Below, piece after piece: positions 2,423-14,768 of a DNA stretch of 58,683 nt. The stretch lies in the sequence record OR506460.1. One strand, given 5' to 3'. How positions within the stretch are numbered: the first letter of the stretch is position 1; every line of letters begins with the position of its first letter. Origin of the DNA: Enterococcus phage AS-M1_NWU. A model generated the notes under the pieces. That model was not told where the DNA came from. It worked only from the letters and a program-made list of their open reading frames with translations, and did no database searches. The position numbers and the translations under genes are program-made.

Positions 2423-2697
2423 TCACCCCTTTTTAATTTAATTAAATCGTCTATCGTTAATTCTTCTCCGCGGTCGCAACGAATAGAAAATAAATCATCG
2501 CGGAATGGGTACGCTATTAATTCTTTTTGACAGTCGGAATAATTCAAATCTCAGGCAATGGGCGAAACTCAATGCGACGAGAACCACCATCAATCATGAA
2601 ATTCTCGATCACTGATGACAGTCTGGCTTTCTGGTTTACCGCGATAGTCTCATAGTCACCGTCCCAACCGTACACTCGTAAAACTTTCGTCGGCGCA

Positions 2698-3321
2698 CTA
2701 TGCGATAAAATGGCGATAGGCTAGTCGGTCGAGGTTATAGAACATTGACCCCACATATTGTAAGTCGTTATTAAACATCGTATTTATAGACGCGATAATC
2801 TCGATCGCCCCTTGATTATTTCTAGCGCATTTGAAATTTAGAACTTGGCCACGATATACGACACCGAACGACTTGCGGGCGATCAAGAGACTATCCATAA
2901 GCACTAAATCCAATGGGTCGGCTTTCTCCGCTTTACGCGTCATCTCCTTGATTCCTCGGCGTTGCTGTGCGCTTGGTTGCATTGATTTACGCAATGATAC
3001 GTGAAGCGGTTTATCTAGGGATACGGTTTTATTTGATAACTCGGTCAAGTAGTCAACAGAACCACACTCCCGGATCTTGTTCTCGACGATATTAAAACTT
3101 CCGGCTTCCACGGTTTCGGTTGCCACTTTCTCGCCGACAATAACGGTAATGATGGCTTTATAAGTTAGTTTTTCGCCGGCGGAATATTTAACTTTAATTG
3201 ATGCGGTCGCGTCTTTGTTTGTGTAAGTCACCGTTTCATAGTGTGTAGGATTAGCTTTGATAACGTTACAAATTTGACGCAATTCCGCACGTTCTGAAGC
3301 ACCGATAGTAATCTTTTTCAT
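2698..3321 (-). CDS. hypothetical early protein (first gene after early promoter cassette copy 1)
   Basis: 207-aa ORF; ATG preceded by conserved leader ...ttgaggattttaaaATG. Confidence 0.55.
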   Translation of the reverse strand: MKKITIGASERAELRQICNVIKANPTHYETVTYTNKDATASIKVKYSAGEKLTYKAIITVIVGEKVATETVEAGSFNIVENKIRECGSVDYLTELSNKTVSLDKPLHVSLRKSMQPSAQQRRGIKEMTRKAEKADPLDLVLMDSLLIARKSFGVVYRGQVLNFKCARNNQGAIEIIASINTMFNNDLQYVGSMFYNLDRLAYRHFIA

Positions 3322-3374
3322 TTTAAAATCCTCAATACTGGTTTAAGTTTCCGGTTCGTTCCGGCTATGTGAGT

Positions 3375-3403
3375 AATATAATATTACCGCTCTCAGGTGT
3401 CAA
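3375..3403 (-). promoter_or_regulatory. sigma70-like early promoter copy 1 (TTGACA-N17-TATATT on minus strand)
   Basis: revcomp reads ttgacacctgagagcggtaatattatatt; part of a ~110-bp cassette repeated 4x. Confidence 0.6.
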
Positions 3404-3430
3404 CAAGTTTTTATAATTATTTTAGGCAAT

Positions 3431-3464
3431 AAAAAAGGACGGCCACCCGAAAAGATGACCGCCC
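3431..3464 (-). terminator. putative intrinsic terminator (minus strand) upstream of promoter copy 1
   Basis: minus-strand RNA GGGCGG-loop-CCGUCC (G-U wobble) followed by UUUUUU. Confidence 0.3.
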
Positions 3465-3482
3465 CTAGTGTTGATGCTTCGA

Positions 3483-3704
3483 TTATCGTGTGAGCATCGT
3501 AACCACTGAATTTTTAACCATTTCCAATGAATCCCCGCCAAGGCTCACACCTTGCCCGCAGAAAGTCCACGGCTTGAGGTGGTGGGGCGTCTTGGCAATC
3601 GTCCCGATCCACACCCCACCCGCAACAACGTAATAAATATTTTCGCCTCGCTCTTGGTAAATCTCGATCGTCTTATCCATGGTTGGATTATTTACCGGCT
3701 TCAT
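3483..3704 (-). CDS. hypothetical small protein
   Basis: 73-aa ORF overlapping 3' end of upstream gene by 17 nt. Confidence 0.35.
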   Translation of the reverse strand: MKPVNNPTMDKTIEIYQERGENIYYVVAGGVWIGTIAKTPHHLKPWTFCGQGVSLGGDSLEMVKNSVVTMLTR

Positions 3705-4338
3705 TTTCTACCCCTTTAATTTTAACTAGCTCTTGTTTGTACTCGGAGCCGAGCACATAATTTTTATTTTCTTCCTTTGGATAAGGCAATACCGGATATC
3801 GAAGCAACTTTTTATATTTCTTCACGACCGAACGGCTCCCCGTAAAATAAACATATCGATGCTTAGACGTTCTAACTTGTCGATAAGTCTTACTTTCCTT
3901 CCCTTGATAATGCCGAGAGTGTTTACCTTGTTCCGTGTATTTATCGGTGCGCGCTTTCGTTGCCCCCGTGTAGATGAAATTGGACGCTTGATAAATATAC
4001 CCGTTGTGGTTCATACCGCGATCCGCATACGACACAATTACCAAGTTTTCACTTTTCAACTCAGCCATAGCGAACGCGATCAATCGGGACGGCGCGTTAC
4101 GGATCGGACGAGTAAAACAAAGACGGTTTAGCTCAAAAACTTTGCTTTTGTACTCCTCGCCCAATATTCCAACGCATAGCGGATTACTCGCCGGCTTGCC
4201 GATAGTTAGAACACCGACAAGCTCCTCGTCTTCGAAGAAACCGAAAGCGTAAGAGATGCTAGGGCGCCTTTCCGCATAATGGTAGTTTAAGATTATGTCT
4301 AAACAATCTTTAGGATCGATACGCCTCATAGAATACAT
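3688..4338 (-). CDS. putative Mom-like DNA-modification protein (GNAT-fold acyltransferase family); tentative
   Basis: 216 aa; motifs NYHYAERRP, ELNRLC, VSYAD, GYIYQASNF resemble my memory of phage Mu Mom family; needs HMM confirmation. Confidence 0.35.
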   Translation of the reverse strand: MYSMRRIDPKDCLDIILNYHYAERRPSISYAFGFFEDEELVGVLTIGKPASNPLCVGILGEEYKSKVFELNRLCFTRPIRNAPSRLIAFAMAELKSENLVIVSYADRGMNHNGYIYQASNFIYTGATKARTDKYTEQGKHSRHYQGKESKTYRQVRTSKHRYVYFTGSRSVVKKYKKLLRYPVLPYPKEENKNYVLGSEYKQELVKIKGVENEAGK

Positions 4339-4341
4339 ATT

Positions 4342-5082
4342 TTAACCCTCCCACGTCCAAGATTCTGAGGCGTCACGAACAATAATTTCGGCCGGACGGT
4401 TTGCGCGTATTGCAACGTCTTTACCATCAACGAAGTAGACCGCGAAAAAATACCCGAACACGTCGCCATCTTTTACGTGGATTTCTCGTCCGTCGTCTTC
4501 GCAGTAGAACACTGTAAGCCCGTCTACTGATGCTTCGTTGTTCACTTCGAAACCAAGGCTTGACAGGCCGTCTAACAGCGGGCGCATTGTGTCGAAACTT
4601 TCAGGAAGTGACGCCAAGATCAAGGCGTCTAAATCACTAACCGCGTTACGTTTAAGAGTCACACACCCGCCGATCGTGAAAGTTATGTCCCAATCTTCGG
4701 TTGCTTCGCCACGGCTAAAAAATATGGCTTTTAATTCTTCCCCGTCGTTTGTTTTTGTAAACGTTGTCGCTCCGTGAGATTTATCAAGGTCTAAAGAGAA
4801 CCCTAGCGCTTTCATTACGGCGATAGTTCGTGCGGATAAGTCCGCATCATTGGCCATATGACAGCTCGCACCATGATCGAACGCGCTCACCTCGACGCTC
4901 TCAAAAAGATATCTAACTAACGGAAGAAATTTATCTAGGTCAGCAATTAATGCTATCGCCCCCGATAATGTTTTAACATCGCCCACCTTGGCGCGAGGGC
5001 TAACTGTCAAAATATAATTACGAACACTTTCGGGCATATCAAAAGGGCTGTTATTGGTTACAACGTTAGAAATGAAAGTCAT
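4342..5082 (-). CDS. hypothetical early protein (after promoter cassette copy 2)
   Basis: 246-aa ORF, RBS ggagga 7 nt before ATG, conserved leader. Confidence 0.55.
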   Translation of the reverse strand: MTFISNVVTNNSPFDMPESVRNYILTVSPRAKVGDVKTLSGAIALIADLDKFLPLVRYLFESVEVSAFDHGASCHMANDADLSARTIAVMKALGFSLDLDKSHGATTFTKTNDGEELKAIFFSRGEATEDWDITFTIGGCVTLKRNAVSDLDALILASLPESFDTMRPLLDGLSSLGFEVNNEASVDGLTVFYCEDDGREIHVKDGDVFGYFFAVYFVDGKDVAIRANRPAEIIVRDASESWTWEG

Positions 5083-5136
5083 GATTTAAATCCTCCATAC
5101 TGGTTTAAGTTTCCGGCTCGTTCCGGGTATGTGGGT

Positions 5137-5165
5137 AATATAATACTACCGCGCTCAGGTGTCAA
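5137..5165 (-). promoter_or_regulatory. sigma70-like early promoter copy 2
   Basis: revcomp ttgacacctgagcgcggtagtattatatt. Confidence 0.6.
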
Positions 5166-5191
5166 CAAGTTTTTATAAATATTCTAGGCAA

Positions 5192-5230
5192 TAAAAAACC
5201 TCTTACCGTGGCACCGAATAAGAGGTTTTA
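5192..5230. terminator. bidirectional intrinsic terminator hairpin
   Basis: 9-bp perfect stem aacctctta / taagaggtt, 13-nt loop, A-run 5' and T-run 3'. Confidence 0.45.
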
Positions 5231-5426
5231 GTTACTAACTTGTTTTCGTGTTTTCAAATCAAGGCTATATTAACGGATATTTTTCAGCTTGTAAACAATA
5301 AATTTATCCGCTTAAAAGAAAAAAGCCCGCATATACGGGCTTAAAATATAAGGCTTAATGACCTAAAATTACGCAAACTTTACGAAGTGTGGCACAAGTA
5401 ACCCAAATCAACCAACGGAAGCGAAC

Positions 5427-5636
5427 TTATCCACCGTTGAGCTGAACAATAACACCGTTACGGGTACTGTCAAGAGTTGCAGCGCATAGACCAATAGAAC
5501 CGCGCCACGGTGAATATATCCCACAGGATACACACTTTAATCTAAACAAAACTAGCCCGTTACTACTGCGAGCCTCAGATCTAAACGGCTTACCGCATGA
5601 ACAATAATACCAGTTTTTCTTTTCCTTGATCACCAC
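5427..5636 (-). CDS. small Cys-rich (zinc-ribbon-like) protein
   Basis: 69 aa, CSCG...CVSCG motifs. Confidence 0.35.
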   Translation of the reverse strand: MVIKEKKNWYYCSCGKPFRSEARSSNGLVLFRLKCVSCGIYSPWRGSIGLCAATLDSTRNGVIVQLNGG

Positions 5637-6061
5637 ACAGCCCCCCTTACGTTCGTGAGTGTGTCCCTATAACTCCGATATAAATTTTTTGCTCCTCGTA
5701 TCCATTCGCCGGCGATCTCCCCCGAGAAAAGAACCGGCTCGTAAACCGGGTAAGTGACATTAGGGCTATCCGTTCTAACGTCGTCGATCCTAACGTATGC
5801 CCGCCGGTGTCCGTAAGAATATCGGACGGTTAGGACTCTAAGCAACTTGCTGTTAACATGGAACACGACGCCATAAGAGTAATTAAAGTCCGGTAACGAT
5901 AAATCGATGCTAGGCCTCCCGATAGCCACTACCGGGAGATTTAGAAACTCATTACAAGCCTCATAAAATTTGAAACAATTTACTGAGTTACCCATGATAT
6001 ACAACCCCGCGCAGTTCCAGACCTCGGAAATTATAGTAAATCTCAGACTCACCGGCTTCAT
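5630..6061 (-). CDS. hypothetical protein
   Basis: 143-aa ORF overlapping the 3' end of the 5988..6557 gene. Confidence 0.4.
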   Translation of the reverse strand: MKPVSLRFTIISEVWNCAGLYIMGNSVNCFKFYEACNEFLNLPVVAIGRPSIDLSLPDFNYSYGVVFHVNSKLLRVLTVRYSYGHRRAYVRIDDVRTDSPNVTYPVYEPVLFSGEIAGEWIRGAKNLYRSYRDTLTNVRGAVW

Positions 6062-6557
6062 TCGGCGCCCACATGCACACAGAAAAGTCGCCAGCGTCGA
6101 ACTCTCTTAGATGCGATATGTGACCGAAACGGCACCCGCCAGTGATTACCAGCTCGTCGATTGTTCCGAACTCCTCGCAACCCTCGACAACTTCTTCCAG
6201 TGCTTCGGCCAGTTCTTCGATGTAGGCTTCCACTTGTTCACGCCAAGACGCTCTTATTAATGCGTTAGCTTCCATCATCAAACAATTTAATGAACTTTCG
6301 CACCCGCTGAAATCTAAAGGAGATTCTAACTCAACAGAATCAAACTCGCTAGACTGGACGATCTCCCACGCTTCCCCGAAGTGGTCAACGCTGATACACT
6401 CCGGCGCATTCATTAGGTTATTTTCTTCGAAAAGGTCGCGTAATTGATTTTCGAAATCTCCGCGGGTATCTAATGAAGTTCCTTTAGGTAGACCCGTATT
6501 AACATCATCAATGATAGATTGGAAGATAGACGCTTTAGTGTATGCTAATTCAGCCAC
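5988..6557 (-). CDS. highly acidic hypothetical protein (candidate DNA-mimic/anti-restriction); GTG start
   Basis: Listed ORF start (TTG at 6572) lies inside the conserved leader RBS; GTG at 6557 is 8 nt after gagga. Very high D/E content. Confidence 0.45.
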   Translation of the reverse strand: MAELAYTKASIFQSIIDDVNTGLPKGTSLDTRGDFENQLRDLFEENNLMNAPECISVDHFGEAWEIVQSSEFDSVELESPLDFSGCESSLNCLMMEANALIRASWREQVEAYIEELAEALEEVVEGCEEFGTIDELVITGGCRFGHISHLREFDAGDFSVCMWAPNEAGESEIYYNFRGLELRGVVYHG

Positions 6558-6611
6558 GGTAATAATCCTCAATACTGGTTTAATTTTCCGGTTCGTTCCG
6601 GCTATGTGTGT

Positions 6612-6640
6612 AATATAATACTACCGCTCTCAGGTGTCAA
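6612..6640 (-). promoter_or_regulatory. sigma70-like early promoter copy 3
   Basis: revcomp ttgacacctgagagcggtagtattatatt. Confidence 0.6.
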
Positions 6641-6662
6641 CATGTTTTTATAATTATTTTCC

Positions 6663-7064
6663 TCAATCGGGGAAATAGGGGATTCTACATTCACATAAGG
6701 TCAGATTTTCTATGTGGGTAAAAATGACCTCTAAGTGTAACGTCTTCCAGCACTGGCCGGAATTCAGGAAATGCCGGCGGATAATGAGCCAGCCCCGATC
6801 ATCTTCGACTATTCCGGATATGCGAAGGCTTACAATAGTTTTGTTGTCTGAGTAAGCCGGTTTACTCTCCGGATCAGCTCGGAAGTAAAACGCATTAGCT
6901 AGATTTAAAATAGTCTGTATGTCGTGCGTAGATAGTTGTAACTCTTTTTCGTGCGGACTCAAGAACGAAGAAAGCCGGGATCTCGCCCGGCGTGAATTGG
7001 TATCTTTAGGAACTGATGAAAAGTATGTCACACCGTCCACCCCATTAACTGTATAATCGCTCAA
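6663..7064 (-). CDS. hypothetical protein
   Basis: 133-aa ORF. Confidence 0.45.
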   Translation of the reverse strand: MSDYTVNGVDGVTYFSSVPKDTNSRRARSRLSSFLSPHEKELQLSTHDIQTILNLANAFYFRADPESKPAYSDNKTIVSLRISGIVEDDRGWLIIRRHFLNSGQCWKTLHLEVIFTHIENLTLCECRIPYFPD

Positions 7065-7233
7065 AACTTTTCACCTCTCGATGTGTAACGGTTCGGTTAT
7101 AAGAGACGTTACGTGTTAACATAAAGCGCATATCCCACGCTGGACAGAATAGCGAACCGTCCCCATTGACAGTAACTTTTTCGTCGTCAGCGATTAAAAT
7201 CATACCGCTGTTTAGAGTAATTTTATTCTTCAT
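7045..7233 (-). CDS. hypothetical small protein
   Basis: Track ORF trimmed to ATG at 7233 (overlaps upstream stop by 11 nt). Confidence 0.3.
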   Translation of the reverse strand: MKNKITLNSGMILIADDEKVTVNGDGSLFCPAWDMRFMLTRNVSYNRTVTHREVKSFERLYS

Positions 7234-7465
7234 CGTTATCTCTCCCACGTATCGCAGATATAAACGCTTCCCCGCTCTCCTGATCAGGCCACGCAATCCC
7301 GCCAACCACGCCGAACGCTATCCCATAAAGACAGAAACGCGCGACGGTTAGATCACCATATACGGCCAAAGTTCCCACCGCCCCCGCGAACCCTACCGCA
7401 CAAAGAGACGCGACGACAAAACCGAACGCCCCGCGAGCCTCTAAATTATTTAATTTCTTAGCCAT
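7223..7465 (-). CDS. small membrane protein (2 TM)
   Basis: 80 aa, Gly/Ala-rich hydrophobic helices. Confidence 0.4.
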   Translation of the reverse strand: MAKKLNNLEARGAFGFVVASLCAVGFAGAVGTLAVYGDLTVARFCLYGIAFGVVGGIAWPDQESGEAFISAIRGRDNDEE

Positions 7466-7476
7466 AGATAAACTCC

Positions 7477-7803
7477 TTACGGGTGAATAATAATATTATC
7501 GTTGCGTGTTCGAACCGGCTCCGATAAATACATATTCGCCACCTTACCGCTTTTTATATCCTTTTTAATCTCGGATATCATCAAGCCCGACCGAATAATT
7601 ACAGAAGACGGGCTACTCACTCTTTCTTCTGATATCGCAACAGGGAAAGGGAAATCATTCAATAGGTTATCGATGAACTTTTCCAGATAATCCGCGTCGG
7701 CTTTATGGGAGAGGACGACATATTGCTCATAGTTCGCCTCAATCCCTGTGACAGTCAGACGATGCGCAGAACGGAAAAGATCGAAAGGAATTTGTTTGCT
7801 CAT
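7477..7803 (-). CDS. hypothetical early protein (first gene after promoter copy 4)
   Basis: ATG at 7803 preceded by RBS tgagg; promoter 7836..7864 upstream. Confidence 0.5.
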   Translation of the reverse strand: MSKQIPFDLFRSAHRLTVTGIEANYEQYVVLSHKADADYLEKFIDNLLNDFPFPVAISEERVSSPSSVIIRSGLMISEIKKDIKSGKVANMYLSEPVRTRNDNIIIHP

Positions 7804-7835
7804 TACTAAAACCTCAGTTTGTTTGTGTGCTGAGA

Positions 7836-7864
7836 ATATTAACAACACCTCGGGCCGGTGTCAA
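7836..7864 (-). promoter_or_regulatory. sigma70-like leftward early promoter copy 4
   Basis: revcomp ttgacaccggcccgaggtgttgttaatat. Confidence 0.55.
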
Positions 7865-7974
7865 CAAGTTTTTTTATCTATAAAAATTCTGACGGAACAA
7901 AGGAAACGCGCCCACCGGTGCGCCCGTACATACATATAAGACGGACAGTTTGTACTTATCTACAAAAATCTCAG

Positions 7975-8144
7975 GCTTACTTCAAAAACCTCGCGGGCCG
8001 ATGATTTTCTGTGACGATTTAAAAACTTTTCCGGCCGGCTTACTTCAAAAACCTCGCGGGCTGAAAAAATTCCCGTGAGGAATAAAAACTGGCCAATGGA
8101 TTTATCTACAAAAATTAGAACCTAACTTCAAAAACCTCGCCGGC
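7975..8144. repeat. three ~25-bp direct repeats (ggcttacttcaaaaacctcgcgggc) interleaved with ttatctacaaaaat repeats
   Basis: copies at 7975..7998, 8037..8061, 8121..8144; ttatcta[ct]aaaaat at 7883, 7955, 8102; between divergent promoters. Confidence 0.7.
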
Positions 8145-8204
8145 TGACGGAAATCCTCGGGTAACATCGATTAAAACTTTACGGTTAAAAATACATAAAA
8201 ACGT

Positions 8205-8233
8205 TTGACACCGCAAACAGGTTAGATTAGTAT
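8205..8233 (+). promoter_or_regulatory. rightward early promoter TTGACA-N17-TAGTAT
   Basis: ttgacaccgcaaacaggttagattagtat, 40 nt upstream of ORF 8275. Confidence 0.5.
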
Positions 8234-8274
8234 TCTCGGACATTAAAGATGATTAGCCACAACAAGGGGAAAAC

Positions 8275-8706
8275 ATGATCGAGTCAGAAGATATTATTTT
8301 CGTAAACGGCGACAAACCTAAAATCGATAACTCGCCCGCGCTAGAAAGTCGCAACACGGTTAGTGTAGAACTAGAACGAGAGTTAACCGCAGCGTCTTCG
8401 ATTCCAGACAAACTTACAGTAGTACCAACAAAAGGGAGACCCACCAGCATGGTAGGTATGATCGTATCGTTAGATGTCGGAGACGTGTTTACTAAATCCG
8501 AGTTTATTCTTGAAGTTTCAGACCTCGACGCCATGAGCGAGAGCGTAGACCTGACTGCACGAAAAGAAAAACTCAGACAAAGCGTAAAAGCGTCTATGAC
8601 CCACGCTAAAAAGAAAACTAATGGCGAATATACTTTAGAAACGCACCACTTTATTACGCCGTTGGGTCGCCTTTACATTCAAGTTTTAGTGACCCGTATT
8701 TCCTGA
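8275..8706 (+). CDS. hypothetical early protein
   Basis: 143-aa ORF, RBS aagggga before ATG. Confidence 0.5.
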   Translation: MIESEDIIFVNGDKPKIDNSPALESRNTVSVELERELTAASSIPDKLTVVPTKGRPTSMVGMIVSLDVGDVFTKSEFILEVSDLDAMSESVDLTARKEKLRQSVKASMTHAKKKTNGEYTLETHHFITPLGRLYIQVLVTRIS

Positions 8707-8787
8707 GCAATTTTTTGTAGGTTTCACGTTTTTTAAAAAGGCGTGACACCCTATGGCAAACAACCACCCTATCGGAGAGAAAAACCA

Positions 8788-9099
8788 ATGGAACGCAACG
8801 ACAATTTAGAGCACACCACCCCCGTAGACCCTGATAAACAAATCGTCAAGTTGTTAGAGGGGAACCCGGAGCTTTTAAAGCACTTTTATAAACTTTCCGC
8901 AATGGCGGATAAAGTGGGAGAGATGGAACGCTCTTTCGAAGAACGCGTTGACGCCGTATTTAAAGTAGGTATCCGCCTAGTCATGATCGCGAGCAACCGG
9001 AAAAACCTTATCGTAACCGATGACGATGTGGCAAAGGCGGAGAACTCAACACTGGAAGTTAGCGAAAATAACGGCAATGTTAAATATATGATCAAGTAG
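8788..9099 (+). CDS. hypothetical protein
   Basis: Start moved to ATG 8788 with RBS ggagaga. Confidence 0.45.
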   Translation: MERNDNLEHTTPVDPDKQIVKLLEGNPELLKHFYKLSAMADKVGEMERSFEERVDAVFKVGIRLVMIASNRKNLIVTDDDVAKAENSTLEVSENNGNVKYMIK

Positions 9100-9104
9100 G
9101 TAGT

Positions 9105-9425
9105 ATGAAAAATTCAAACGTAGCACTCGCCATTGATTCCGTTTTGGTAAAAAAGAAAATTGATATTATCCCGGTTTTTAAATCGTTAGAGGAAGTCTAT
9201 CAAATGCGGATACAAGCGTCGTGGTCAGGCATCACCGCGCACACGCCAGAACGACGCATCTATACCCACGGCCACCCGACTACAAAGATGGCAACAACAC
9301 CGGAACAACGTACAACGTATCGCCTACGGCTATTGAAATTCCTCAGATGGCTATACGCGAACAACTACACAACGGGGCCACTGTTAGAAATCAAATCGTG
9401 GCTAGAGGAGCAAGAGGAATGGTAA
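9105..9425 (+). CDS. hypothetical protein
   Basis: 106-aa ORF. Confidence 0.4.
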   Translation: MKNSNVALAIDSVLVKKKIDIIPVFKSLEEVYQMRIQASWSGITAHTPERRIYTHGHPTTKMATTPEQRTTYRLRLLKFLRWLYANNYTTGPLLEIKSWLEEQEEW

Positions 9426-9766
9426 AGGTCTTATACAACAGCGAACAAGCGCAAGTAAACCAGTTGCGAGACCAGATTAAATCGCACACTGAGGAGTTTG
9501 AAACCGCGATGGCCGAAGTCGACCAGATCATTAAAGAAAATATCGAGACATACCTAAACGATATATCCGGGTTAATGATGTCGATAGTTAGAGTCTATGA
9601 CAATGCTGAGATTGAGGACAAAGCGACAGCCTTAGATCTTGTTCACTCTAAAGCGGTAACTCGTTTAGCATCCATTGAAGATAAGAGCATTGAGCTACGC
9701 GCCCATATTGAACACTTAGTATCCACCATTAAAAACGGAGTGATTAAAAACAATGAAACCATTTGA
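9419..9766 (+). CDS. hypothetical coiled-coil protein
   Basis: Internal ATG 9419 with RBS gaggag; longer listed start overlaps previous gene out of frame. Confidence 0.4.
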   Translation: MVKVLYNSEQAQVNQLRDQIKSHTEEFETAMAEVDQIIKENIETYLNDISGLMMSIVRVYDNAEIEDKATALDLVHSKAVTRLASIEDKSIELRAHIEHLVSTIKNGVIKNNETI

Positions 9767-10841
9767 TAAATTTATTGCGTTTGCGATATCAGAACCGGCA
9801 GACCCCAATAATACGACCTCGTTTTCCGCATTAGCGAACGGGTCAGAAGACCAACTAAAACAACTAGGCCGAGAACTAGAAACAAGCCTAAGAAACCTAC
9901 CGATCGGAGACCCAAGCGCTATGCAGTGGACGCGCCACGGTTTTGCTAAACCCGACGAGAACGCCGAACCGATCACCGTTGTAGATGAAGTCCTAGGGGA
10001 CATGGAAGACACGCCATACGTTATGATAGACGAAGCGGGTAAATATCTCGTGTTCACTTTCGAAGAACGCGCTCGAATGCTAAGCCCGGCAACGATCAAG
10101 GACGAATTAGAGGTTAAAGTAAAAGATTGGATAGAACGAGTTGGTGACACCCCGACAAAACGTGAACGTAATGATATGCGCGATGAAATCATCAATGACT
10201 TGTTGCCAAAGGCCACAATAAAGCGCACTAAGACATACGCCATGATCATCAAGGGCGTTCTTGTTGTCTTCGCTGGCAGCAACAACATAGGTGAAAAAGT
10301 AGCATCGGCAGTAAGAAAGGTAGTAGGGTCTCTCCCGGTCGTCCCGTGGTTTGAGCATTCGTCCCTTATTACGGAGTTTTTAAAGAAAATCGCTACGGTA
10401 GACTTTGACCCGGAAGATGCAGTAGGCCAAGCGCTAGATAAATTTGAGATTGTCCGTAGTGCTAAAGTCTCCGCTGAAACAGGCGCGTACACTTTCAAAG
10501 ATGTTTTTGACATCACGAATGACGTTTCATTCAAAGAAGCGCTAGGACAAACTAACGGATACTCATACCCACTCGGGATCACCGAAGCGAATTTAGAATT
10601 ACGACATGACGCCACAGACAGCCCTATCGGTTTTGTTCTTACGGCCAAAGGCGTTTTAAAGAGCGTAAATTGGAATGACGAGCCGGAAAATATTTTCGAC
10701 GACTCCGTGTTTGACACGAACGAGGAACGGGAGCGTGCTCGATTTGTTTTCTCTACATGGGACGCTTACACCTTAGTTACGGCCGTACTAGGAGCGCTAC
10801 ACAACGCAAACGCAAACCGATTTGTAGAAGACGATATGTAA
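9753..10841 (+). CDS. rdgC: RdgC-like recombination-associated protein
   Basis: 362 aa; block ...DEIINDLLPKA...GSLPVVPW... matches E. coli RdgC region ...DEVLHSLLPRA...GSLPVVPL... Confidence 0.55.
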   Translation: MKPFDKFIAFAISEPADPNNTTSFSALANGSEDQLKQLGRELETSLRNLPIGDPSAMQWTRHGFAKPDENAEPITVVDEVLGDMEDTPYVMIDEAGKYLVFTFEERARMLSPATIKDELEVKVKDWIERVGDTPTKRERNDMRDEIINDLLPKATIKRTKTYAMIIKGVLVVFAGSNNIGEKVASAVRKVVGSLPVVPWFEHSSLITEFLKKIATVDFDPEDAVGQALDKFEIVRSAKVSAETGAYTFKDVFDITNDVSFKEALGQTNGYSYPLGITEANLELRHDATDSPIGFVLTAKGVLKSVNWNDEPENIFDDSVFDTNEERERARFVFSTWDAYTLVTAVLGALHNANANRFVEDDM

Positions 10842-10843
10842 TT

Positions 10844-11044
10844 ATGAATACAGAACGTAAAAAACTGGCGTCTAACCTGACAAGACTAAAAGTCGGAGAG
10901 TCTTTCTTCGTAGAATGTCTTCCGAAAGACCTAGCCCACGTTCGACGCCTAGCTTATAAGCTGAATATTAAGTTATCCATGGTTCGTGTCGATGTCGACC
11001 CGATCTACGGAACATTGGGGACGAGGATATCTCGCGTCAAGTAA
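10844..11044 (+). CDS. hypothetical small protein
   Basis: ATG 3 nt after previous stop. Confidence 0.35.
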   Translation: MNTERKKLASNLTRLKVGESFFVECLPKDLAHVRRLAYKLNIKLSMVRVDVDPIYGTLGTRISRVK

Positions 11045-11051
11045 AAACGCA

Positions 11052-11080
11052 TTGACACCTTGCGGGGGATTAGTTACGAT
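11052..11080 (+). promoter_or_regulatory. promoter TTGACA-N17-TACGAT overlapped by inverted repeat cggggga-N11-tcccccg (11063..11087)
   Basis: shares GTTGACACC extended -35 with other promoters; IR spans -10. Confidence 0.4.
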
Positions 11081-11110
11081 TCCCCCGTATTATAAACGTA
11101 AGAGGCTTAC

Positions 11111-11929
11111 ATGATTAAACTTATGCACTATGCGGATTACGACTACCGCGACCCAAGTAAACATGAACACCGAATTTTCCCGGTTCCGGCCGGAATTAGA
11201 GTCGGGGTGATCATTAAACGCGTTAAGTCCATTGCGAACCCAACTAAGATTGAGGTGTGGCAATACGACGAAAAAGGTAACGCGATTACGGATCTTACCG
11301 GCTTCGCACCGCACATCGAGGGCGTATGTTTAAAAGCGTACCAATGGCTTACAGAACATACATTATCTCTCTCCGGGATCTCGGATACTGAGTCCGATGC
11401 GTATGACTCCGGGATCGTAATCGATGGGTATTTCCAAGATATCCGACCCAACTACGGAACGGCCGACGAGACATTAGACCAGTTGGAAGAATGGTTATTA
11501 GATGAATTCGAGACGACGGACGAAACTAAAACCATATTTCAATATCTGGCCGTTACGACCTACGAGTCAGCGCTTCGAGGCAAAGACGGTAAAGACATTC
11601 ACCTACGCCGTTCTAATCTACGCCATGCGTTGTGCGCATCGAACAATGCTGACCATACCCGCGCTAATATCTCTGTCTCGGAGAATGTGCCACGTTTTAC
11701 CGTGTGGCCAATGTCTATGTCTCCTCGTTCTTGGGATATGAGCAAGCCCGGCCCGAACGCTTGGGACTCCATGGCGGGTGTCGCAGCACCAAGAGGACAA
11801 CAATTCGAAGACCAACTAAATACATGCTTTGAGCGCGGTTTTATCGGTGGGCTAGATATGCGAGCGTTCCACGGCTGGAATACCCGAGTTACCGCATATC
11901 AGTTCATCACTGAGGACGCAACGTTATGA
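11111..11929 (+). CDS. hypothetical protein
   Basis: 272-aa ORF, ATGA coupled to next. Confidence 0.5.
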   Translation: MIKLMHYADYDYRDPSKHEHRIFPVPAGIRVGVIIKRVKSIANPTKIEVWQYDEKGNAITDLTGFAPHIEGVCLKAYQWLTEHTLSLSGISDTESDAYDSGIVIDGYFQDIRPNYGTADETLDQLEEWLLDEFETTDETKTIFQYLAVTTYESALRGKDGKDIHLRRSNLRHALCASNNADHTRANISVSENVPRFTVWPMSMSPRSWDMSKPGPNAWDSMAGVAAPRGQQFEDQLNTCFERGFIGGLDMRAFHGWNTRVTAYQFITEDATL

Positions 11930-14739: not shown

Positions 14740-14768
14740 TTGACACCGCGATCCGGAGTCGATAGTAT
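14740..14768 (+). promoter_or_regulatory. promoter TTGACA-N17-TAGTAT
   Basis: ttgacaccgcgatccggagtcgatagtat; followed by RBS aaaggggg and ATG 14800. Confidence 0.5.

Follow-up and report, generated by a model that had tools for sequence, protein, structure and literature searches.

The window analysed here, a stretch of 58,683 nucleotides (58.7 kb; sequence record OR506460.1, deposited as Enterococcus phage AS-M1_NWU), is approximately the whole genome of a Proteus phage of the genus Lavrentievavirus (Casjensviridae; the PM87, pPM_01 and E21 group), and its leftward genes are punctuated by three copies of a composite repeat, termed cassettes c1 to c3 below. As direct repeats of 114 nt the copies lie at 3323-3436, 5085-5198 and 6560-6673 (88-92% identity to the reference copy in a repeat search). 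As intergenic, minus-strand cassettes of ~114 nt they are 82-92% identical and share one order of parts: an A/T-rich UP-like tract, a predicted promoter TTGACA-N17-TATATT, a leader of ~45 nt, a GAGGA Shine-Dalgarno (SD) sequence and a start codon. The window has exactly three matches each to the promoter core and to a 37-nt leader, whereas the expectation from shuffles is 0.00. A consensus scan places the promoters, with 11 of 12 consensus matches, at 3403, 5165 and 6640 on the minus strand, and GAGGA stands 7-8 nt 5' of ATG 3321, ATG 5082 and GTG 6557. These start codons mark the downstream limit of the similarity, while the upstream limit is a terminator in c1 and c2 and the stop codon of the preceding open reading frame (ORF) in c3. 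5' of TTGACA, TTATTGCCTAAAATAATTATAAAAACTTG is found in c1 and c2 and AAAATAATTATAAAAAC at that place in c3. The features of the repeats are as follows.

3429..3466, minus strand: intrinsic terminator closing unit 2, at the 5' end of c1 (14-bp stem 3466-3435, then a U-run; z -4.64)
3322..3436, minus strand: c1, with UP-like A/T tract 3404-3436, -35 TTGACA 3403-3398 and -10 TATATT 3380-3375; its leader has a predicted start at ~3368, hairpin CCGGAACGAACCGG at 3364-3351 and SD GAGGA 3333-3329, and adjoins ATG 3321
5193..5229, minus strand: intrinsic terminator 5' of c2, which also resembles the 3' end of a small conserved transcription unit
5083..5198, minus strand: c2, with -35 5165-5160, -10 5142-5137, predicted start ~5130 and hairpin 5126-5113; at its 3' end SD 5095-5091, adjoining ATG 5082
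6558..6662, minus strand: c3, with -35 6640-6635, -10 6617-6612, predicted start ~6605, hairpin 6601-6588 and SD 6570-6566, adjoining GTG 6557; no terminator, and directly 3' of stop codon 6663-6665
7836..7881, minus strand: P4, the leftward promoter of a divergent control region (TTGACA 7864-7859, TAATAT 7841-7836), with only AAAAACTTGTTGACACC in common with c1-c3

An earlier, sequence-only reading of this DNA had described four copies, three of them near-identical and running into the downstream start codon and the fourth a copy of the promoter core, with a terminator hairpin before two. Alignment bears out the run into the three start codons, and the two hairpins were recovered 5' of c1 (3435-3466: -21.3 kcal/mol, z -4.6) and c2 (5193-5229: -15.6 kcal/mol, z -3.5), each with a U-run after the stem. 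The proposed order of terminator, promoter, leader and ribosome-binding site before the first gene of successive leftward operons therefore holds, with the terminator present in c1 and c2. Three copies stand as cassettes; the fourth (7831-7881) shares only the promoter core and joins a looser four-copy family of 51 nt at 71% identity, its spacer and leader not being shared with c1-c3. Since three rightward promoters (8205, 11052 and 14740) carry TTGACACC as well, P4 is better described as a promoter of the same class than as a cassette copy; the three copies and P4 lie inside 4.6 kb. Some details of that description needed correction: the -10 box TATATT matches the consensus at 5/6 positions, making the promoter 11/12 rather than perfect, the spacing of 17 counts from TTGACA and not from GTTGACACC, and the leaders are near-identical rather than identical.

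Assemblers tend to confuse repeats, and contigs of the Logan assemblies do break at the cassettes, so duplication of one promoter region by an assembly or sequencing error deserves consideration. However, window positions 2600-8300 are 94-96% identical across their full length to 27 phage records, and 27/27 of these, from different laboratories and countries, have three copies per genome, identically placed, and each copy shows point differences of its own. Moreover, several positions distinguish the copies from one another, and no two are fused to the same gene. The repeats are therefore genuine, as the sequence-only reading had supposed, and the probability of an artefact is close to negligible. 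A separate observation concerns labelling: genomes 94-96% identical to the window have been deposited as Salmonella, Escherichia, Pseudomonas and (unverified) Staphylococcus phages, and some host labels among the related records are probably wrong, or enrichment cultures were contaminated.

Four leftward transcription units are predicted, each with 3-4 ORFs:

7477-7803, 7223-7465, 7045-7233 and 6663-7064, minus strand: P4 unit, ORFs of 108, 80, 62 and 133 aa; no terminator after it
5427..6557, minus strand: unit 3, driven by c3, with ORFs of 189 aa (5988-6557), 121 aa (5630-5995) and 69 aa (5427-5636); terminator 5342-5323
3483..5082, minus strand: unit 2, driven by c2, with ORFs of 246 aa (4342-5082), 216 aa (Mom-like, 3688-4338) and 73 aa (3483-3704); terminator 3435-3466
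2698..3321, minus strand: first gene of unit 1, driven by c1 and followed by further genes; 207 aa, a homologue of gp54 of Providencia phage Kokobel1

Unit 2 lies entirely between c2 and c1, whose start-to-start spacing is 1762 nt. In place of the four single unknown products previously envisaged, each unit thus holds several genes, one product of which, the Mom-like protein (PF25680), is recognisable. The claim of independently terminated units holds only in part: terminators lie 5' of c1 and c2, but there is none between the P4 unit and c3.

Concerted evolution of the copies

A blastn search of 50,697 phage records with c1 as query recovers the cassette at 77% identity from Kokobel1 (Kokobelvirus) and, in part, from Proteus phage Saba (Cenphatecvirus), which has its own, looser promoter set (TTGACT-acc...). 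In Kokobel1, promoters of the same build stand 5' of the homologues of the 108-, 189-, 246- and 207-aa genes, and cassettes stand before the last three. Because these promoters precede the same homologous genes, the cassette positions are taken to be ancestral.

Within this ancestral arrangement, the sequences of the copies follow the genome rather than the position. Over -33..+18, the Kokobel1 cassettes k1 and k2 are 98.9% identical and c1 and c2 of the window 92.0%, as opposed to 75-78% for the orthologous pairs k1/c1 and k2/c2. Flanking orthologous genes of the window and Kokobel1 show 61-73.5% nucleotide identity, with third codon positions of the 246-aa gene at only 37%. The 17-nt spacer, in which strong constraint is not expected, matches at 15-16/17 positions within a genome and at 9-10/17 between genera, and the UP tract at 31-33/33 (c1/c2, k1/k2) against 22-24/33. 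Furthermore, among nine Lavrentievavirus genomes, 5 of the 32 variable cassette sites show the same two alleles in two or three paralogous copies. A pattern in which copies follow the genome is the signature of gene conversion or recombination between copies, and these alignments indicate that the cassette copies evolve in concert. Their uniformity accordingly comes largely from recombination, and not only from selection for co-regulation.

Cassettes as end-points of gene-block gain and loss

Equally informative is a 58,246-bp Logan contig, L074, that was reached through homologues of the 189-aa protein. By blastn, its positions 8001-11507 are collinear with positions 2629-6122 of the Kokobel1 locus, and 11382-11865 aligns with Kokobel1 8311-8794; the overlap of the two alignments (11382-11507) is exactly one cassette, so that L074 follows Kokobel1 as far as k2 and rejoins it at k1. 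In a five-way alignment this single cassette is chimeric, with the upstream flank of k2 (the small-RNA terminator) and, from AAAAAACTGT onward, the core, leader and downstream gene of the k1-type cassette of another contig, L090, which places the crossover in the ~30-nt T-run/UP tract. The 2.3-kb block consisting of k2, the 246-aa family gene, gp56 and gp55 is present in Kokobel1 and L090, present in Lavrentievavirus with the Mom-like gene for gp56, but missing from L074. The sample behind L074 has no recorded 246-aa homologue, and the contig is unbroken at the cassette, whereas Logan contigs of repeat-bearing relatives do break there; the absence of the block is therefore probably real. As far as these alignments can tell, the cassettes are recombination end-points for the gain and loss of gene blocks.

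The content of unit 2 across the lineage is listed below (numbers are lengths in aa).

Lavrentievavirus: 246-Mom-73
Kokobel1: 246-gp56-gp55 (246-284-118)
L089: 246-304
L090: 248-73'-309-118
Saba: an unrelated 242-aa protein, then a 64-aa protein of the 73-aa family
L074: absent

Saba is also without c3 (P3) and the 189-aa gene, and there the homologues of the 133- and 121-aa genes adjoin each other. The replacement genes in Kokobel1, Saba, L089 and L090 found no match in Pfam or PHROG. In addition, two Logan contigs consist of one cassette-to-cassette period with unit 2, namely L087 (1766 bp, 9 samples) and L089 (1949 bp, with 25 identical nt at both ends); assembly breaks at repeats explain this pattern as well as excised circles (mini-circles) would.

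The 5' leader

The leader behaves as two parts. Its first 25 transcribed nt (ACACACATA-CCGG-RACGAR-CCGG-A) match at 22-25/25 positions in every comparison, including 22/25 (88%) across genera, and are conserved better than the surrounding genes. The distal 29 nt match at 23-25/29 within the window's genus, at 14/29 between k1 and k2 and at 9-14/29 between genera, and their likeness within the genome alone is explained by gene conversion. RNA folding predicts a hairpin in every cassette copy, 4 nt from the predicted 5' end, and a hairpin of other sequence occurs at the same place in the P3 leaders of Kokobel1 (GGGG/CCCC), L074 (GGGGA/TTCCC) and L075/L076 (GGGC/GCCC). The suggestion that the leader is a shared control element thus survives for the first ~25 nt, conserved across genera, and fails for the distal part, alike only within a genome.

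This contrast suggests separate purifying selection, and a separate function, for the first ~25 transcribed nt including the hairpin. Tentatively, the +1..+25 segment may be a 5'-terminal stem-loop acting on mRNA stability or use, an assignment held with somewhat less than even confidence; alternatively it may be a DNA operator, given that CCGGAA occurs in it twice, 10 bp apart (CCGGAACGAACCGGAA).

These same features might be thought to explain the repeats without any recombination, if selection kept one operator or translational-control sequence in front of each early transcript. The 88-100% conservation of the first 25 nt, between genera too, would agree with such co-regulation, as would the paired CCGGAA motifs, which could share one face of the DNA, and the presence in the P3 leaders of a hairpin that differs in sequence but not in place. 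Co-regulation alone predicts, however, that orthologues be as alike as paralogues, and the spacer, the UP tract and the window's distal leader follow the genome instead; the distal leaders of k1 and k2 differ (14/29) despite identical promoters, and the chimeric single cassette of L074 needs recombination. In addition, the leader motif occurs nowhere else in the genome, and the early proteins scanned yielded no recognisable regulator and no helix-turn-helix or other known DNA-binding domain. As a complete account, co-regulation is therefore unlikely; it can hold additionally for the +1..+25 segment, where it would complement homogenisation by recombination rather than replace it as the best explanation.

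Interpretation and significance

Taken together, the repeats are probably composite regulatory cassettes that are homogenised by recombination, serve as crossover points for the gain and loss of operon blocks, and resemble the promoter-early stem-loops (PeSLs) of T4-like phages. On this reading of the sequence, host RNA polymerase would fire each cassette promoter immediately after infection, terminators would insulate units 3, 2 and 1 from one another, and the 5' hairpin would stabilise the mRNA or help its use. The comparisons indicate that recombination or gene conversion keeps the copies alike and that the cassettes act as homologous crossover points, at which a whole operon flanked by two copies can be lost or gained. 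The part of these genomes that the cassettes punctuate is the variable, orphan-rich one. Concerted evolution of the repeats and their apparent role as end-points of block gain and loss, the main point here, had been missed by the sequence-only reading.

Several observations weigh against this interpretation. All 27 of the 27 Lavrentievavirus genomes have the same gene content here and show no cassette-mediated rearrangement, and the clean block indel compares one Logan assembly with one isolate, where an assembly skip across repeats is possible. Several differences in content inside unit 2, such as that between the Mom-like and gp56-like genes, are not cassette-bounded, so other mechanisms act too. 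At the level of the elements themselves, neither a terminator scan nor folding found an upstream terminator or stem-loop in c3, P4 has only a weak spacer hairpin (z -1.05) and no terminator stem-loop, the leader hairpin has a stem of just 4 bp, and folding of the entire leader does not outperform shuffles (z -0.5 to -1.6). Sequence is likewise the source from which promoter strength, start sites, terminator efficiency and "early" timing are deduced.

If confirmed, the proposed mechanism would extend that of the PeSLs, in which regulatory repeats both express accessory genes and supply homology for swapping ready-to-express blocks, from T4-like myoviruses to a siphovirus family, and would offer a general route for the turnover of anti-defence and host-takeover genes in lytic phages. 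On the practical level, the three predicted strong, insulated promoter-leader cassettes could become expression tools for Proteus and Providencia, the predicted natural deletion points (1762, 1475 and 3237 bp) could guide the trimming of therapeutic Proteus phages and the placing of payloads behind a native early promoter, and the conserved 5' leader hairpin provides a testable case.

Genes carried by the units and neighbouring features

The most recognisable cargo is the 216-aa product (3688-4338), a Mom-family DNA-modification protein (Pfam PF25680, E 7e-36; phrog_1384, E 3e-69). Beyond the genus, it is most closely related to proteins of Listeria and Bacillus phages (52-54% aa identity), which points to horizontal acquisition of the gene. 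It is absent from Kokobel1, L074 and Saba, where unrelated genes are recorded at that place, unit 2 being listed as missing in L074. The previously proposed host-takeover or anti-defence character of the cargo is thereby supported, as an anti-restriction flavour predicted from protein family, for at least this one gene.

A Pfam scan gave no match for the remaining cargo. The 189-aa (isoelectric point 4.09) and 246-aa (4.47) products are acidic, and a search of 5.8 billion proteins gives them 5 and 6 homologue clusters, respectively, none outside this phage lineage; by sequence, none of the 189-, 246- and 207-aa proteins matched a PDB entry. The structural model of the 189-aa protein is confident and of alpha+beta type (predicted local distance difference test, pLDDT, 84; predicted template-modelling score 0.79). 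A search of the PDB with it gave no significant fold match (best E 0.26, template-modelling score, TM, below 0.2), and its single viral structural relative in BFVD, A0A0A0RMX8 (TM 0.79), is without a name. Judging from the model, the protein may represent a new fold family confined to few phages. An Ocr- or ArdA-like DNA mimic, the former having been put forward from the acidity of this product, is not supported by the structure prediction, with no Pfam match, PDB sequence match or PDB fold match. The model of the 246-aa protein (pLDDT 54) is too poor for a structure search.

Two of the first genes differ from those of relatives. The 189-aa gene has a GTG start here (6555-6557), as opposed to ATG in 8/8 other Lavrentievavirus genomes compared. 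Relative to PM87 gp03, the 207-aa gene has a 20-nt deletion (GATATCCGTAACGGTAATGT missing) whose frameshift shortens the product from 267 to 207 aa; the Kokobel1 homologue has 295 aa.

The cargo also bears on the question of whether the repeat is itself an autonomous small mobile element that carries a promoter, whether MITE-like (a miniature inverted-repeat transposable element) or spread by a homing endonuclease or transposase. Multiple near-identical intergenic copies would suit such an element, and the Mom-like protein has a weak secondary match to phrog_3339 ('homing endonuclease', E 3e-9), but this match sits under the much stronger Mom match (2.9e-69), and a Pfam scan of nearby genes found no transposase or endonuclease domain. 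Terminal inverted repeats and target-site duplications are absent around the copies, which occupy orthologous positions in three genera and are found neither elsewhere in the genome nor in IMG/VR or JGI contigs outside the lineage; scans of the IMG/VR and JGI metagenomes for the leader motif gave, besides E21 and Kokobel1, only GC-rich chance matches. A mobile element of this kind is thus very improbable.

At 9753-10841 (plus strand), the rightward early operon encodes an RdgC-family recombination-associated exonuclease (PF04381, E 1e-22). A recombination function of this kind, carried by the phage, could favour exchange between short repeats, the cassettes among them.

Between unit 3 and c2, at 5195-5480 on the minus strand, lie two small conserved transcription units. 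The first runs from the promoter TTGACA(5473)-N16-TATTGT to terminator 5342-5323. Its terminator stem covaries, while the core TTCGCTTCCGTTGGTTGATT does not vary among the window, PM87, Kokobel1, L074, L075 and L076. The second has the promoter TTTACA(5295)-N17-TAATAT and the conserved motif GATTTGAAAACA, and ends at the c2 terminator. Both are candidate small RNAs, of ~110 and ~65 nt, with no Rfam match. In the whole window Rfam gave nothing at the gathering threshold, and with E up to 1 (3200-8300) only a chance Trp_leader match (E 0.4) on a terminator; a tRNA/tmRNA scan found none.

In the divergent control region, iteron-like repeats lie between the leftward promoter at 7864 and the rightward promoter at 8205. 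They comprise three direct repeats of ~51 nt (7951-8147; TTATCTACAAAAAT ... CTTACTTCAAAAACCTCGCGGGC) and may be candidate binding sites for a regulator or an origin; the equivalent regions of Kokobel1 and L074 are internally repetitive as well. Furthermore, the rightward promoters of the TTGACACC class at 11052 and 14740 (plus strand) have G/C stem-loops. At 11052, CGGGGGA...TCCCCCG spans the -10 box, a placement that recalls stem-loop positions described for the PeSLs of phage RB49, while at 14740 ACCCCT...AGGGGGT lies inside the leader.

Comparison with PeSLs and other known systems

Lytic coliphages have clustered strong sigma-70 early promoters, as in the T7 A1/A2/A3 and T5 early promoters. 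The locus described here is similar in having several near-consensus host-type promoters with A/T-rich upstream tracts before predicted immediate-early genes, putative anti-restriction functions included. Those of T7 and T5, however, are not long near-identical repeats that include the leader, nor is each fused to a different operon behind a terminator, and, to our knowledge, they are not known as recombination end-points.

With regard to the leader, one parallel is the ompA-type 5' untranslated-region hairpin, a class of 5'-terminal stem-loops that, in work attributed to Emory, Bouvet and Belasco in 1992, reportedly stabilise Escherichia coli mRNAs. Every cassette transcript has a hairpin that starts ~4-7 nt from its predicted 5' end, in a constant position but with a sequence that varies with promoter type; the cassettes differ from the ompA type in that the stem has only 4-5 G:C pairs and the start site is a predicted one. 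Lambda-type nut sites likewise place a small hairpin in the promoter-proximal leader of early operons with terminators after it. This candidate was rejected: boxA is missing, the hairpin loop is no GNRA-like pentaloop of the boxB kind, and no N-like or Q-like protein was recognised. Antitermination would be unnecessary because each unit has its own promoter.

The closest parallel is provided by the PeSLs, defined by an AT-rich tract, a sigma-70-like early promoter, a terminator stem-loop and an SD sequence with ATG (PMC2839356; PMC4122927). They have been described in RB49/phi1 (Arbiol et al., 2010; PMC2839356) and in T4/PST and KVP40/nt-1 (Comeau et al., 2014; PMC4122927). PeSLs cluster in hyperplastic regions beside ORFans, where inter-PeSL recombination generates indels and mini-circles, and both their promoter and terminator activity and the mini-circles have been shown experimentally (PMC2839356; PMC4122927). 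The cassettes share with them the intergenic unit of AT-rich tract, near-consensus sigma-70 promoter with N17 spacing, SD sequence and start codon (TTGACA-N17-TATATT in c1-c3, TTGACA-N17-TATAAT in the RB49 type), the clustering of several copies in a variable region rich in genes of unknown function, and block indels among close relatives that recombination between copies accounts for. The indel end-points in cassettes are seen in the sister lineage (L074 versus Kokobel1 and L090) and not in the 27 Lavrentievavirus genomes. In PST-type PeSLs the stem-loop lies just 5' of the promoter, the same as in c1 and c2.

The differences are equally clear. A stem-loop is present in c1 and c2 but not in c3; the host genome is that of a ~59-kb Casjensviridae siphovirus rather than a T4-like myovirus (Straboviridae); three full cassettes compare with 29 PeSL-like promoters found in RB49 by a pattern scan; and the window's copies are much longer and more uniform (114 nt, 82-92%), with a conserved ~45-nt leader that has its own small hairpin. 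Activity and mini-circles are experimental for PeSLs, whereas the cassettes are known from sequence alone. The literature searched contains no report of PeSLs outside T4-like phages and no description of promoters or repeats in Lavrentievavirus genomes; the T4-like host range is best regarded as a taxonomic limit of published descriptions and not as a mechanistic requirement.

This likeness raises the question of whether the cassettes and the PeSLs of Krischvirus (RB49/phi1) share common descent, having been exchanged between T4-like myoviruses and enterobacterial Casjensviridae. In the search of phage records with c1, the non-Casjensviridae matches among those listed are T4-like, Krischvirus-type coliphages, at 87-89% over 45 nt (E 2e-6 to 2e-5) and up to 72-74% over ~90 nt. 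RB49 PeSL 58685 has CTTTTTTATTGCCTAAAAT, GTTGTTGACACC, an ACAC.CAT start region and, in the leader, CGAAACGAA/CTTAAAC, as in the window. With the core removed, the upstream flanks of RB49 score higher against the window's than do those of 33 phage promoters that have this core but are unrelated (Mann-Whitney p 1.8e-6). The top RB49 scores are 45 and 35, whereas no unrelated promoter exceeds 18, and six RB49 leaders score above the maximum (24) of shuffled and unrelated controls. Yet the long upstream identity is confined to two RB49 copies, the downstream (leader) comparison is not significant overall (p 0.058), profile hidden Markov models built from RB49 leaders only or upstream regions only miss the window's cassettes (nhmmer, E above 1), and none of the cargo proteins searched has a Krischvirus homologue. 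Furthermore, 55 stretches of IMG/VR DNA, on many different contigs, have the extended core TTGACACC-N15-TATAATACACACAT together with an A/C-rich leader, so the core is generic rather than diagnostic and convergence on a strong-promoter design is plausible. Homology with the Krischvirus PeSLs is thus possible but not established, convergence being at least as likely, and descent by exchange between the two groups is rated as distinctly unlikely. More speculative still, and improbable, is the idea that the Lavrentievavirus/Kokobelvirus cassette and the Krischvirus PeSL form one exchangeable lineage, a "plug" across unrelated enterobacterial phage families, whose excised circles could integrate across families during co-infection.

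Whatever their origin, the cassettes appear, at the level of sequence, to display every PeSL feature except the stem-loop in c3. What is new here is the concerted evolution of the cassettes, the block indel of L074, and a cargo mostly of narrowly distributed families together with a Mom-like gene not found in the sister genera.

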